Shown piece after piece: positions 12,554-48,147 of a stretch of 64,000 nucleotides of DNA; the first letter of the stretch is position 1; the number at the start of each line of letters is the position of its first letter. The stretch covers positions 62,001 to 126,000 of the forward strand of contig JBEWZL010000220.1 in the NCBI GenBank assembly GCA_045837725.1. The letters run 5' to 3'. A program made the position numbers and the translations under genes. The DNA is from Vermamoeba vermiformis. Taxonomy: Eukaryota. The notes beneath the pieces were generated by a model. The model was not told the origin of the DNA, made no database searches, and saw only the letters and a list, made by a program, of their open reading frames with translations.

Positions 12554-12788
12554 CTGACCGTACTTTCAGGATTCATTTCTATAGTACGTTCAGTCATGTC
12601 GTGTCTTTCACACATGGCAAAATCTCTCAGTAGGGATGATGAACTAGGTCTGGGAGTCTTGAGCGGGAAGGTTTGTTGAGAGCTTTACTCAGCCGGCTTC
12701 GGTCGTGCGGAGTACAAAGTCTCACCAGTTGATGAACGTTTCCTCTCAGTCTTCTGCGAGGAAGGGACTCTTCAGAAGTTTGACCTAT
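12554..12788 (+). ncRNA. U3: U3 small nucleolar RNA
   Basis: All U3 boxes in order: A' GACCGTACTT, A GGATTCATTTCTATAGTA, C' GGATGATGA, B GAGCGGGAAG, C TTGATGAACG, D-like GTTTGA, closed by a TAGG/CCTA terminal stem. Length ~235 nt. Confidence 0.92.
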
Positions 12789-38458: not shown

Positions 38459-39240
38459 ATGAGTCACTCACCGCATGCAAGCTCAGTAAGTGATTGATTA
38501 CGTATTTATAATATTATGATACAATTATTATTGCGTGCATATATTATTGCAATTATTTGTCCCTAATTTCATATATTTTTATTTTTATCCTCCAAATTGT
38601 TAAATCTACGAAGTCGTCCCAAATAATTTCACTTCATTACGGCAGTACACACCGAGTTAATTATACAGCGTTTAAGTTATAATAAGCAAATTTCGCACTT
38701 GGTTGCAGAAAATAACGGTTATATTTTCGGCAGTCGGATGAGGATTTGCCGCAAGAAGATGACTGGCAACTCACCTACAAGCCCAAATCAGCGCTAGACA
38801 TCGAGGATGACGACGAGAAGCCTTCAAATGCACCTTTGTCGGTTGAAGAGTCATCGAGCGAAGCGCCAACTAGCGAACCAGAACAAACAGCCGAAGTTAA
38901 CGAGAACGAGTTGCCTGTGGTGCCTAAACCCAAGGAGGTGACACCTGCAGAGGACAAAACGGAGAATAAGGCCCCAGATAATAATACCAATGCTAGCACT
39001 ACACTCGTAACCCCGGTTGTCACAACACCGGCCAAGTCAGAACCAAACACGCCAACGAAGAAAGATGACAAAAGAAAATCTGACAAAAGGAAGTCAGATA
39101 AGAAGGACAAAAAGGACAAGAGCAGAGGCTCGGTTAGTCCCAAAAAACGAGACAGCAAACACAGATCTGACAAGAAACGTGCCAGCAAAAAAGATGACAA
39201 GCGCAGTTCAAAGGACGCTAACACGAGCAATATAACGAGC

Positions 39241-39275
<35 letters not shown>

Positions 39276-40623
39276 AAATGATAACGCGAACGAAAGCTCG
39301 AACACTAATAACACCAACGCGCCTTCTGAAAACAATACAAACGTCGTCAAAACTGAGACGACAGGCGGTGAATCAGTTGGCAAAGAGAAGATTGATGGCA
39401 CCGATGCACGCGTGATGTCAAAAGAGGAAGAAGAGGACTTGGAGAATATGCGCAAAGAACGACAACAAGGCCGCAAAAGACACGGTGCATTCTATGCTGG
39501 CAATAGCAAGTCAAAGATCGGCTTGGATGCGAAGGTAAGGATGAATATTAGGTCCTTGAAAGAGAAATATTAACGCTGCTTTGTGTTGCAGGAAGAAATT
39601 CCCGAGGCCCCGTCATCATCCTCAGGAACAGTTGCATTTTCATCAGCAACGTTTATTTCAACGGACGGCCGCATCACAAAACACAACATTCAAACGCGTG
39701 TCAAGAACAAATCAAAGCGATTTATCATTGCCTTCGCAGACACAGTGGGACGACGTGCGAATATGGAGGACGACTTTTTTATCGGAGGTCAATACCGCGG
39801 CTCCAGCGACGAGGACTTTATTGCGATATTCGACGGTCACGCTGGCCCCGATGTCGCTCACTATGCGGCGTATCAGTTACCAATCACTATGCAAGAGATG
39901 ATGAAGAAAAACAACAACATTCAGCTCTGCTTCAAGAAGGCATTCTACGAAATCAATCAACAGCTCAAGCAGAAGAAGATTGTTGGAGGTACGACGGTGT
40001 TGTCGTGCTACTTCCACCAACAAGATCTCTACATTGCCAATCTCGGTGACTGCAGAGCTGTCGCGTTGAATGCTGACGGCAAGTCTGTGCGACTGACACG
40101 TGATCACCGTCCTGATGCCCCTGAAGAGCAACGTCGCATTGAAAAGCTCGGTGGTGAAGTGACAACAGCTGTCACCAAAGAAGGCAAGCTCGTCAGTCGT
40201 GTCAACGGTGTCTTGGGTGTCGCTCGTGCCCTGGGAGATTTTGATCTCGAACCGTTCATTAATGCCGAGCCTGAAGTCTTCGTATTCCACCCTCAATCTG
40301 AAAAGCACAACTTCAAAGCGATTGTCATTGCCTGTGACGGCTTGTGGGACGTGGTGAGTACTCAACTTTGCATTAACGACGTGTGCAGCAAATCTAACGG
40401 TCATATTTCACAGCTGGAAGATCAGGAAGCCGTAGATATTATTAGTCCTTATTTAAAAGACCACGAAGTCGAGAAGGCCTGTGCTCGTCTTCGTAATGTC
40501 GCTTATGCTCGCGGTAGTACAGACAACGTGACGGCAGTTGTGATTCAGCTGTTGGATCAAGAAGAGATTACTGCATTGAAAAAGAGTAATGGCGGCAAGT
40601 CTGGCTGGTGCTCGGTGTCGTAA
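38459..40623 (+). CDS. PP2C/PPM Ser/Thr phosphatase with long disordered N-terminus and C-terminal CaaX box
   Basis: RRANMED, IFDGHAG, ANLGDCR, LTRDH, LGVARALGD, ACDGLWDV, GSTDNVT; ends KSGWCSVS*. In-frame 60-nt intron at ~40354-40413. Start exon MSHSPHASS is inferred. Confidence 0.92.
39241..39276 (+). repeat. Coding (AACACG)n microsatellite encoding an Asn-Thr repeat
   Basis: Five perfect AACACG units plus AACACA read directly. Confidence 0.9.
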
Positions 40624-40896: not shown

Positions 40897-41200
40897 GAAC
40901 ACCACGGCAAAGAATTACACTCGAAGCATACATACGAGATCCAGGCTCAGCCTGTTGATCCGCTGTTATAATGAGCTTCGGGGAAAGTCTCCGGACACTG
41001 GGGCAGAAAGTGTCAGCCTGTAGGGGCAAAATCCTACTTCTCTGCCGCTAAACCAAGACGCTCACCGTAGATGAGAAGAGTTTGGTAGAGAACTAGGCAG
41101 TTGGTCACAGTTAAAGTAATTGTAATTACTCTGTCTTGCTTCAACGTCGTGATGAGGCGAGATGGAGGTAACTCAACGGGGCTTACTCTTGCTGGTGTTC
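40897..41200 (+). ncRNA. RMRP: RNase MRP RNA
   Basis: CR-I GGGGAAAGTCTCCGGAC; MRP-specific P8 GCA-GAAAG-TGT (GARAG loop); CR-V AACGGGGCTTA pairing with CR-I (P4); P2 AATTAC/GTAATT; P1 GAACACCA..GCAA.GA pairing with TCTTGCTGGTGTTC. Confidence 0.92.
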
Positions 41201-44898: not shown

Positions 44899-45372
44899 GC
44901 ACGCAAGATTGCAAATATAGTTTGGAGGTAGTTATTAATCGTTGTGAAATACCGTCTATACCTCAAAGGCAAGCACGTGCTTCAATTGATCGAGAACTGA
45001 TTGGTCATTACACTCGGCACATTATATTACACCATAGATGTGCTGCTTGGACACATCAAGCGTGGCAGTAAATAATGACGTCATGCATGATAAATACATT
45101 GTAGATTTTTGGTAATTTATTGCTAGTTGGCCTGTTGTGCTTTTGTGAGCTATTGGTGGTCATAACTGAGAGTCAAGAGCGCTCAAATTCTGCCAGTAGA
45201 CCTGATGGCATCCACTTAGATGCATGCACAAGTGTCGCGGTATCTATTGAAGTCGTTGGTCTTTCTGATGGATTAGTGCGTGAATTGAGAGCACAACTTG
45301 AGCAGAGGAAGCACGTCAAATCGACCAAGTAAGCAATCTGCTGTCCTTCGTGCTGCAGTTTTTTGTCGTGAA

Positions 45373-47156
45373 TTAATTCTTTGGTGCAAATATTAGATAG
45401 ACTAAGAACAGAACACGTTAGTCTTAATGACAGGTTGCAGCAGGTTATGATCTTGAGTACCTGTAACTAATATGGCAACAAGGAACAACATCACCACAAC
45501 AATGAATATCTTGGTGGACCTCGTCGGATTGATGGAACATTGAATTGGATGCCACCGGCCCATCGGATGTCCTGCGCATAACTTGTCAGTGACCGCACAA
45601 ATAGATCGTATCGCGCACTCGTACCTGGCTTCACTTTGCTATCAAATTCCTCGATTTTGATTCTCAGTTCGCTGATCTGATTCACCAGTGCTTGTCGTTC
45701 GTTTGGATCATAGTTCAAAGCTTGCAGTTGACGTTGTTTGTATCCGTCTAGTCGCGCAACAGCCATCTTGCTCTCGTCCTCTTCGTAGTCACCAATCTTC
45801 TTGCGAATAGACAGCCACACAATCACGTCGTGGAGTGTCATGCGCATCGCAACTAAATCTCCTTCGGACTCTTTCTGCTGATTGGCCAATTGTTTCACTG
45901 CTTGAATCAACACAGGCACCATGTCAGAATAATTGACAGACAGGTACCCGTTCTCTTCTTGTTTGACTGCTTCAGGGAACACTTCTTGGACTTGTTGCGC
46001 GATCAATCCCAGGACTCGCTCACGATGATCCAAGCCCTGCACGATAATATTTGATAAGTCCTCTTAATGCTATCTTGTGACAGTACGTACTGGTAGAGTA
46101 TCGGGCTTCCACTGATATCGCACACCTTGGAGTTGTGTCACCATTTGCAGCGCATCGACGATCTCCTCGATGTTGGTTTTGAGCCTTAGATCGGAAAACT
46201 GATGGAATGAATAGGCACGCACAGAGCCTTCAAGATCCGAGTCAGTCGCGCAAAGTGTCAAAAGTTGACACGCGTCACTTACCGTGCACGTCTAATGATG
46301 TCGGCATGACAATCGGGGACGGTTGAGACGTGTTGGAGTTGTTCTCTGAATGAGGACTGTGCACTGGCGATGGCTCAGCACTCAAATTGGGGGCAATGAG
46401 CTCCTGACCAGCGTCTAATCTGCGCTTCTTTTGTGCTGGTTGTTGCGCCGTCGAGGACTGCGAGTGCGATGTTTTAAATGTAACTGAGCGACACTCTAAT
46501 ATAGTTCCCAGGTAACTCGCTACTTCGACACGAAAGTAAATAGAACTTGATGTGTTAGTGGCTGCAATGAGCTGAAAATCGACCGTGGCTTGGAACTGAA
46601 CTGTGCGGTTGTCAGATCCGGATCCTTCAAATCAAACTAAACCTACCTGGATTGGCGTTCACTTGACTCACGGCAATATTTCCTAATTTTACAGAGTATT
46701 CTGTTGACAGTTCTGGCTTTTCGGTTAGATCGGCATTGATTATTGACACATTTAAAGATCTCCAATCGCACTCCATAAGCGTCATAATTGATAGCCGTAA
46801 ATGTTTGCCTCTACCATAAACTACGCGTATTGTGTCACCATCATTGATTTGCTCGTACGCTCCTTTTGCTTTTCTAAAAAAAACGATTAATACGTAAATA
46901 TGGTCAGAGTTACAATAAATACGTCAAATATACTTCAATATTCCTTCCATATTTTTCTTAATTTTCATTCTTACTTTGGGCGGTGAAGTAAAATTGTTCG
47001 GATGGGATCAAGTGTATGCGCAACTTCAATGGCATTATTGCTCGTCGCAGGAATATTTTCGTGATTATTCGGCCATTCTAATTCGATGTTGTCCTCAGGC
47101 GAAGAACTGCCGAAAATACTGTCAATTTCATCTGCTTCCAAGATGTCAAAAGACAT
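45373..47156 (-). CDS. MYRF/MrfA-like protein: beta-rich N-terminal domain, NLS, peptidase S74 intramolecular chaperone/autocleavage domain, coiled coil, C-terminal TM
   Basis: Spliced LDVHGSVRAYSFHQF-SDLRLKTNI...LQGVRYQWK...GLIAQQVQEVFPEAV...LSVNYSDMVPVLIQAVKQL is an S74 domain. Upstream PAQKKRR. Spliced tail KIFIVVVMLFLVAILVTVYLIFAPKN*. Confidence 0.85.
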
Positions 47157-47442
47157 GGTGGACTATCGTCGTCAAATAGATGTGGTAGTAAAATAAAAGC
47201 ATGACCGACATCGCTTGTGTGGTTGATAGCCCGCGAAAGTTCGAAATTAGAAATTGTGAGCGATTTCTGTGTGGACCAATCAGGAGCCGACGATTGTAGT
47301 GTGGATTGGTCCTTTCGATATCGTTTTGCGCAAAACATAAGCAAGAAATAATGCAAGTTCAATTAAAATTGATCTTTATTTCAATTCGTACAAGAAATCT
47401 CGGTGGATCTTTGTACTCGTTCAAGCACACAGAGGAGCAGGT

Positions 47443-47877
47443 CTACTTGATGTTAATGCGCTTAGCACCAGTCTTCTCTTTCTTTTGGATCTTCGGCAGA
47501 GTGACTTCAAGCAAGCCATGATTGTACGTGGCTTGAATCTGCTCGGCAGTCACTCCTTCGGGCAAACTCATTGAGCGAGAGAACTTGCCGTAGCTACGCT
47601 CGACGCGGTGATACTTCTCGTTCTCTTCCTTCTTCTCTTGTTGCTTCTCGCCGCTAATGGTTAAGACGCCATTGTCGACTTCAATGTTGATCTGATCGCG
47701 CGGCACACCGGGCAACTCGGCGCAGAGCACAATGGCATTGTCGGTCTCTTTGACATCGACTTTAGGGCGCCATTGGCTCATCATTCCACCCTTCTCTCCA
47801 AGGAACGGATCGAAGGACGACAGACGTGTGTCGAACACATCTGCGAAAGGATCGGCTAAAAATCGAGCAAGACTCAT
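47443..47877 (-). CDS. Small heat-shock protein (HSP20/alpha-crystallin), intronless
   Basis: PKVDVKET, AELPGV, VLTISGEK, HRVERSYGKFSRSMSLP, ATYNHGLLEVTLPK. Confidence 0.96.
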   Translation of the reverse strand: MSLARFLADPFADVFDTRLSSFDPFLGEKGGMMSQWRPKVDVKETDNAIVLCAELPGVPRDQINIEVDNGVLTISGEKQQEKKEENEKYHRVERSYGKFSRSMSLPEGVTAEQIQATYNHGLLEVTLPKIQKKEKTGAKRINIK

Positions 47878-48147
47878 TGTTGATTAGTGCTTAGTTGTTG
47901 AGTGTAGTATTGACGAATGATGAAATAATCGAGCGATCCAGTTTCAATTTATGTCTGTCGGTCTGCAGAAAGTCAACAGATAATTCTTTTTTTCCTATTG
48001 GATCTCAGTGAAAAGCAGAACTTGACTTGATTTGGATAAGTTGGCAAAATGCAACGATTATTGCAATATATATCAACGAGAAAATTTGCACTATAAAAGT
48101 GAATTTACATGTACGTCGCGATATTTACAATTTGGTTGGATCTTACA

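Follow-up and report, generated by a model that had tools for sequence, protein, structure and literature searches.

A gene of seven exons was identified on the minus strand of a 64,000-nucleotide (nt) stretch of Vermamoeba vermiformis contig JBEWZL010000220.1 (referred to here as the window), with its coding region located at positions 45373-47156. The gene encodes a small protein in which an intact ICA (Peptidase_S74) domain with its Ser-Lys dyad is preceded by a beta-rich domain of no recognised family and followed by helices and a hydrophobic C-terminus. Whether this product represents a tail-anchored, trimerising, self-cleaving factor similar to Dictyostelium MrfA, carrying a different cargo domain, is in our assessment evenly balanced. 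According to this reading, the protein, of 461-479 amino acids (aa), would be inserted in the membrane by its tail, with its entire N-terminal part on the cytosolic side. The ICA domain and the helices that follow it would bring three chains together, after which the Ser-Lys dyad of the SDLRLK motif would cut each chain just ahead of the Ser. A fragment of ~27-29 kDa, encompassing the acidic region, the orphan beta-rich domain, the KKRR motif and one short stalk strand, would then be freed, leaving a 25 kDa stub in the membrane. The freed fragment would enter the nucleus as a regulator, as described for Dictyostelium MrfA and animal MYRF, in this case with a cargo that is not recognisable as NDT80. 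Self-cleavage is considered probable, and a role of the released fragment as a nuclear regulator is plausible at somewhat less than even weight.

The order of the parts along the polypeptide carries this reading (residues are numbered according to the 479-aa model). Residues 1-60 exhibit a net charge of -10 with scattered bulky hydrophobic residues, and may constitute an activation region. The beta-rich domain encompasses residues 61-190 (130 aa, or 112 aa if intron 2 is 76 nt long) and is followed by a low-complexity linker rich in Ser, Pro, Gln and Asn (residues 191-245), in which PAQKKRRLD (residues 199-207; 46413-46439) fits the classical monopartite import motif. A strand-like stalk leads to SDLRLK (residues 262-267; 46178-46195), the Peptidase_S74 match ends near residue 348 and a further 131 residues come after it. 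These include a hydrophobic 22-mer (residues 455-476; codons at 45385-45509) with a Kyte-Doolittle 19-mer mean of 3.2, behind which three residues precede the stop codon. This 22-mer is the only segment with a hydropathy above 1.6, and the acidic N-terminus contains no hydrophobic stretch. The protein shows the hallmarks of tail anchoring, with its one hydrophobic segment no more than ~30 residues from the C-terminus and an N-terminus that lacks a signal sequence. As in MYRF and MrfA, the membrane segment comes after the ICA domain and the N-terminus would face the cytosol, provided that introns 5 and 6 are spliced as predicted. A cut before Ser262 is predicted to yield an N-terminal fragment of 26.9-28.7 kDa, with an isoelectric point (pI) of 5.4, and a membrane stub of 25.1 kDa.

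A first-pass annotation of the window had listed these parts (acidic N-terminus, beta-rich domain, PAQKKRR, SDLRLK with both Ser and Lys, S74 domain and hydrophobic end), and each was located in the encoded protein. Their MYRF/MrfA-like succession of acidic region, beta domain, basic motif, linker, stalk, ICA domain with dyad, helices and C-terminal anchor was likewise observed. The coiled coil that had been placed behind the S74 domain corresponds to a low-confidence helical prediction and a short stretch of 4-3-4 hydrophobic spacing in the region encoded by exon 5. AlphaFold modelling of this exon returned helices at residues 4-19, 36-52, 58-80, 99-106 and 111-135 of the exon product, with a mean predicted local distance difference test score (pLDDT) of 56.7 that falls below 50 beyond residue 85. 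The helical region behind S74 probably serves as the ICA domain's trimerising helix.

Profile comparisons place the domain firmly in the S74 family. Pfam Peptidase_S74 (PF13884) was matched by exon 4 (E value of 1e-9, 38.9 bits, profile positions 1-34) and by exon 5 (E value of 1.1e-4, 22.9 bits, profile positions 39-58), both above the curated cut-off of 22 bits. In phrog_8215, a tail-fibre family of 1000 positions, exon 4 corresponds to positions 902-940 and exon 5 to positions 941-988, leaving no gap (E value of 7e-15). In total, 29 PHROG families were matched by exon 4 and 38 by exon 5, representing phage tail-fibre and baseplate proteins. Alignment of the spliced ICA region with metagenome loci fetched with exon 5 was successful for all 12 loci, at 30-46% identity over 93-122 columns, and runs without a break across the junctions of introns 3 and 4. 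All 15 alignment rows preserve Ser, Asp and Lys at the S-D-x-x-x-K positions; the rows are a biased sample in that the relatives had been chosen through a shared AQQVQEVF pattern. In both metagenome loci inspected (L002 and L008), the S74 match is situated inside long unspliced open frames.

Four loci were obtained from viral contigs, none of them closer, and two bacterial proteins were found with exon 5 among longer proteins; the Atlas neighbours of exon 5 were phage S74 clusters only. When single exons were compared with PDB sequences by phmmer, no S74 chain was matched. A profile built from ten metagenome relatives, when compared with solved structures, identified the tip of a T4-type long tail fibre (6f45, E value of 8.8e-10) and a further tail fibre (8jov, E value of 1.1e-9), and the same profile also found the ICA domain of MYRF (7dc3, E value of 3.3e-9) and the phi29 neck appendage (3gud). 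Judged by these profiles, the domain is a full member of the S74 family, with the MYRF ICA domain within reach of the same profile.

MrfA is cut at SDLRIK, nearly identical to the SDLRLK observed here, leaves a membrane stub of 19 kDa as compared with the 25 kDa predicted here, and requires both Ser and Lys for cleavage and nuclear entry (PMC3828593). The two proteins share the succession of cargo, long disordered linker, short stalk, ICA domain and near-C-terminal membrane segment, the linker in MrfA separating the DNA-binding domain from the stalk (PMC8326128). However, MrfA is a protein of ~100 kDa with an NDT80-type DNA-binding domain, whereas the protein described here has a mass of ~52 kDa and a cargo that matches no family. 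Animal MYRF is a type II protein of the endoplasmic reticulum that is released as a trimer by the same ICA domain (PMC3742443); the C-terminal ICA helices drive trimerisation and MyRF's beta-helical stalk holds the released trimer together (PMC8326128). The type II orientation, the ICA domain with its Ser-Lys dyad and the trimerising helices after it, as predicted here, are common to both. In contrast to MYRF, the amoebal protein has no recognisable NDT80 domain, no match to MYRF-specific Pfam models, no luminal domain (three residues follow the anchor) and a far shorter stalk.

A 2026 survey of proteins that combine NDT80 with a membrane segment describes four amoebozoan examples with an endosialidase chaperone domain, and reports MrfA-like amoebozoan proteins as being devoid of the MYRF C-terminal domain (PMC13294678). 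The fungal NDT80-plus-transmembrane class of the same survey resembles the present case as a proposed membrane-bound regulator outside animals with an unusual domain pairing, but carries NDT80 without ICA, whereas an ICA domain without recognisable NDT80 is found here (PMC13294678). Since the NDT80 domain and the MYRF-specific models both remained unmatched at the sequence level, the protein is not assigned to the MYRF/MrfA family, and is instead read as working like MrfA. In the publications consulted, self-cleaving transcription factors tethered through an ICA domain appear solely as MYRF/MrfA-type proteins with NDT80. A literature search, with most subscription journals outside its reach, brought up no such factor bearing any other cargo. 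The yeast proteins Spt23 and Mga2 are tail-anchored in the endoplasmic reticulum and release a cytosolic N-terminal part with an immunoglobulin (Ig)-like IPT domain to the nucleus. Their release proceeds through ubiquitin and the proteasome, not by self-cleavage, and the cargo domain described here differs from theirs in having no TIG/IPT match.

The gene model was assembled by a script that joined open frames on the reverse complement at GT..AG splice motifs. It extends from an ATG at 47156 to a TAA at 45373-45375, with seven exons and six GT..AG introns (Table 1) and an in-frame stop two codons upstream of the ATG. The product comprises 479 aa with an intron 2 of 22 nt, the splicing adopted in the first-pass annotation (intron lengths of 101, 22, 55, 54, 53 and 59 nt for introns 1-6), or 461 aa with an intron 2 of 76 nt; in both cases, the frame is open with no internal stop. 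Among 17 in-frame GT..AG options compared for intron 2, the 76-nt version was best. It is preferred because its CTGAC motif sits 16 nt from the acceptor, in a manner similar to introns 3, 5 and 6 (in which CTRAC precedes the acceptor by 14, 14 and 16 nt, respectively; intron 4 has no such motif), whereas the 22-nt version is devoid of a branch motif. The longer intron removes 18 residues from a loop in the middle of the beta-rich domain and leaves the peptides quoted in the earlier annotation unchanged. For intron 2, a length of 22 nt is doubtful and 76 nt fits better.

Introns 3 and 4 are confirmed by homology: in both Pfam and PHROG profiles, the two S74 halves match stretches that adjoin each other. 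Introns 5 (53 nt) and 6 (59 nt) belong to the same length class as introns 3 and 4, and possess CTGAC/CTAAC motifs at 14 and 16 nt. The proposal that a terminal transmembrane segment is reached through two introns was upheld as regards the segment itself, which is strongly hydrophobic and ends three residues from the C-terminus; the two introns are placed by their splice signals. Across the gene (45402-46974), the introns display a uniform signature, being mostly 53-59 nt in length, with a donor of the GT[AG]NG type and CTGAC/CTAAC located 14-16 nt before the acceptor. Such a signature resembles that of fungal-type introns. Three RNA sequencing runs with the same species label contained 0 reads on 45100-47450, a result that is uninformative unless the organism was present in these runs. 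Overall, we are confident that both the gene and its arrangement of parts are genuine.

Allelic variation was examined in one DNA run that contains 96% of the sampled words of the stretch and that may be the source of the window itself; the numbers are small. A second allele or strain was visible at 19 listed places over 45100-47450, and several short stretches occur in two versions, as would suit a heterozygous diploid or a mixture of two strains. Eight of the nine exonic differences were synonymous, the single replacement being Pro433 to Ser, and in exon 2, which encodes part of the orphan domain, all four differences were synonymous in the predicted frame. Five differences were located in introns 4 and 5, and another five within the 54 nt upstream of the ATG. 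If intron 5 were read through, two of its three differences would alter a residue. This distribution favours purifying selection acting on the predicted frames and speaks against a pseudogene. Six differences fall within 132 nt at 45549-45680, and the differences as a whole are concentrated in introns, at third positions of codons and in the 5' flank.

The N-terminal orphan domain was analysed using a read-through of exons 2 and 3 (P0004; 196 residues, with an X at the frame change and the mini-intron read as seven extra residues) and using single exons of 55-118 residues; queries of these lengths would miss remote relatives. No Pfam family, including NDT80 and TIG/IPT, was matched at an E value of ≤10 by the read-through, or at ≤1 by exons 1, 2 or 3 individually. 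Among PDB sequences, the read-through obtained no match at an E value of ≤10, and exons 2 and 3 obtained either nothing or noise at E values above 0.3 (phmmer). PHROG and NCBIfam contained no family for the N-terminal part (best PHROG E value of 0.19), exon 3 had no homologue among proteins of near or longer lengths and no match in viral contigs, none of 248 pattern matches to exon 2 in metagenome contigs was confirmed, and tblastn revealed no paralogue within the window. Exon 2 alone scored 0.81 in the Atlas, which is in the noise range. Two candidate matches to exon 2 were rejected: a bacterial protein (P0003), the single match among 1,835,955,588 representative proteins, with nine repeats on one 28-residue stretch, was judged spurious, and a viral-contig match (L001) of only 24 residues was treated as chance. 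The claim in the earlier annotation that the domain is not recognisable as NDT80 is borne out by these Pfam and PDB results, as far as sequence comparison extends. AlphaFold modelling of the read-through (not the spliced domain), performed without an alignment, returned seven strands at a mean pLDDT of 37.9. A Foldseek search of the PDB with this model gave 0 matches at an E value of ≤0.001 and generic beta-sandwich entries with a best TM-score of 0.41; NDT80, MYRF and p53 chains were absent among the matches listed, for a model that is unusable at this pLDDT.

A number of observations weigh against a MrfA-like factor. The cargo is nearly neutral (net charge of +1, pI of 7.96), and exon 2 had no real homologue when compared by HMMER with 1,835,955,588 representative proteins. 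DNA binding would thus be a guess from the layout, given that the cargo is nearly neutral and has neither a DNA-binding family match nor homologues, and the Ig-fold or DNA-binding cargo suggested in the earlier annotation would likewise be conjecture, with a sole model at a pLDDT of 37.9 and a fold search that returned no match at an E value of ≤0.001. The stalk before the cut consists of only ~16 residues. The anchor depends on introns 5 and 6, which are placed by splice signals alone, and on retention of intron 5, the frame would continue for 48 residues without a hydrophobic segment. For exons 4-7, the Pfam models specific to the MYRF ICA and to MYRF C-terminal domain 2 (which we take to be PF13887 and PF13888) were absent from the families listed at an E value of ≤1. 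The closest ICA relative among the 12 metagenome loci, with 45.6% identity over 103 columns, is encoded by a phage-like contig (L007, 1-7377) in which an open frame, at least 1715 residues in length, terminates in S74 and three further open frames follow; it looks like a phage tail-fibre locus. In a comparison made by eye on the printed alignment, the ICA domain also looks closer to phage sequences than to that of MYRF. Finally, S74 domains in protist genomes are often located at the ends of integrated polinton-like virus fibre genes (PMC12220804).

Several of these points can be accommodated if the gene is what is left of a domesticated fibre gene, of phage type or from a eukaryotic virus, or encodes some other trimeric protein that does not act in the nucleus. 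In such a protein, S74 would do no more than chaperone and free a beta-sandwich, cytosolic or close to the membrane, whose role is not transcriptional but, for example, in binding or scaffolding. We consider this unlikely, though deserving of appreciable weight. The nearest ICA relatives are indeed tail-fibre and baseplate families, and the Atlas neighbours, the terminal S74 of L007, the frequency of S74 in polinton-like fibre genes and the neutral charge of the cargo point in the same direction. C-terminal chaperones of phage tail fibres and tailspikes (endoNF type; T4-like 6f45) provide the best sequence match to the ICA domain and share its Ser-Lys dyad; however, the phage domain ends a long fibre and is discarded, whereas here it lies in the middle of a protein, followed by helices and an anchor, and the gene is spliced and cellular, its short N-terminal part being of a non-fibre kind. 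Neither an S74 domain at the extreme C-terminus, nor fibre-type N-terminal modules, nor an unspliced viral gene was found. The six spliceosomal introns carry uniform, host-like signals, the neighbours are cellular (HSP20, PP2C, JmjC, RNase MRP RNA and U3), the N-terminal part has no convincing PHROG match, and a low-complexity linker of 65 residues with the KKRR motif separates the cargo from the chaperone, which in fibres folds the adjoining stalk.

The same ICA profile that leads to phage fibres also reaches MYRF, and the beta-rich domain could be a stripped-down NDT80-type s-type Ig fold, invisible to sequence methods, in a highly diverged member of the MrfA/MYRF family. The part order is that of MrfA, including a long disordered linker ahead of the stalk (PMC8326128). 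MyRF's DNA-binding domain, which has an s-type Ig fold, 182 ordered residues and seven core and nine outer strands, is itself only 16% identical to Ndt80 (PMC5473870), and the low-confidence model of the orphan domain likewise has seven strands. Against this stands a domain of 112-130 aa, as compared with the 182 ordered residues of MyRF, which matched neither NDT80_PhoG (E value of ≤10 for the read-through, ≤1 for single exons) nor any PDB sequence at an E value of ≤10, despite the solved MyRF and Ndt80 domains (5H5P and 1MNN; PMC5473870). With the MYRF-specific ICA and C-terminal models also unmatched, and chains of NDT80, MYRF and p53 missing from the listed fold matches, albeit for an unusable model, such a divergent family member is deemed improbable. 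Still less probable is a faulty gene model, i.e. anchor exons that are untranscribed, a decaying pseudogene or a soluble product that ends after exon 5. Intron 2 is ambiguous, RNA support is nil and exons 1-3, 6 and 7 are covered by no homologue; however, every frame is open, the exonic differences are largely synonymous, including those in orphan exon 2, and two of the three intron 5 differences would change a residue on read-through. In addition, introns 5 and 6 resemble in length the two introns confirmed by homology (3 and 4), they share the branch-like motif of intron 3, and an in-frame 22-residue segment with a hydropathy of 3.2 is unlikely to arise by chance.

If the reading as a self-cleaving, tail-anchored factor is correct and its cargo is truly new, the pairing of the same release machinery with a compact cargo of another kind would show the mechanism to be modular. 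The gene would offer a minimal system (~460 aa) for ICA-driven release, and could reveal a new regulatory or DNA-binding fold. If the cargo is instead a stripped NDT80 fold, the gene would widen the known range and the minimal size of the MrfA family. More speculatively, and in our view rather doubtful, the gene could represent a second, independent eukaryotic capture of a phage tail-fibre ICA domain, joined with a tail anchor and with a DNA-binding or regulatory domain that is specific to the lineage and had not been seen before. Autoproteolytic membrane release would in that event be a reusable transcription-factor chassis, and not a one-off of the MYRF/MrfA lineage.

Table 1. Exons and alternative second introns of the ICA gene, with further features of the window.
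Feature	Coordinates	Strand	Remarks
Exon 1	46975-47156	-	Acidic N-terminus studded with hydrophobic residues
Exon 2	46647-46873 (3' end at 46672 with 76-nt intron)	-	First half of beta-rich orphan domain
Intron 2, preferred	46596-46671	-	76 nt, GTGAGT...CAG; CTGAC branch-like motif 16 nt from 3' splice site
Intron 2, first-pass annotation	46625-46646	-	22 nt, inside the 76-nt intron; branch motif absent
Exon 3	46283-46624	-	Second half of beta domain (to ~46464), Ser/Pro/Gln-rich linker with KKRR, start of short stalk
Exon 4	46091-46227	-	Remaining stalk strand, Ser and Lys of SDLRLK, N-terminal half of Peptidase_S74
Exon 5	45625-46036	-	C-terminal half of Peptidase_S74, then helical region
Exon 6	45461-45571	-	Part of hydrophobic tail anchor; splice signals
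Exon 7	45373-45401	-	End of tail anchor and three residues; splice signals
HSP20/alpha-crystallin gene	47443-47883	-	Intronless; Pfam E value of 6e-26
Open frame, 852 aa	48328-50886	-	No Pfam family at E value of ≤1e-5
Open frame, 554 aa	53994-55658	+	No Pfam family at E value of ≤1e-5
PP2C locus	38716-40623	+	Two long same-frame open frames; PP2C in the second (E value of 2e-52)
RNase MRP RNA gene	40897-41199	+	Full-length Rfam match, 114.6 bits, E value of 2.4e-31
U3 snoRNA gene	12554-12784	+	Full-length Rfam match, 76.3 bits

The window is eukaryotic, has a G+C content of 41-51% and harbours cellular genes for HSP20, PP2C, JmjC, F-box, ankyrin and ZZ proteins. The HSP20/alpha-crystallin gene is encoded on the same strand as the ICA gene and ends 287 nt upstream of its ATG. 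The RNase MRP RNA gene is located just downstream of the PP2C gene. At the PP2C locus, the two open frames meet at 39573/39574; they may be parts of a single larger gene in which the intervening stop is intronic.

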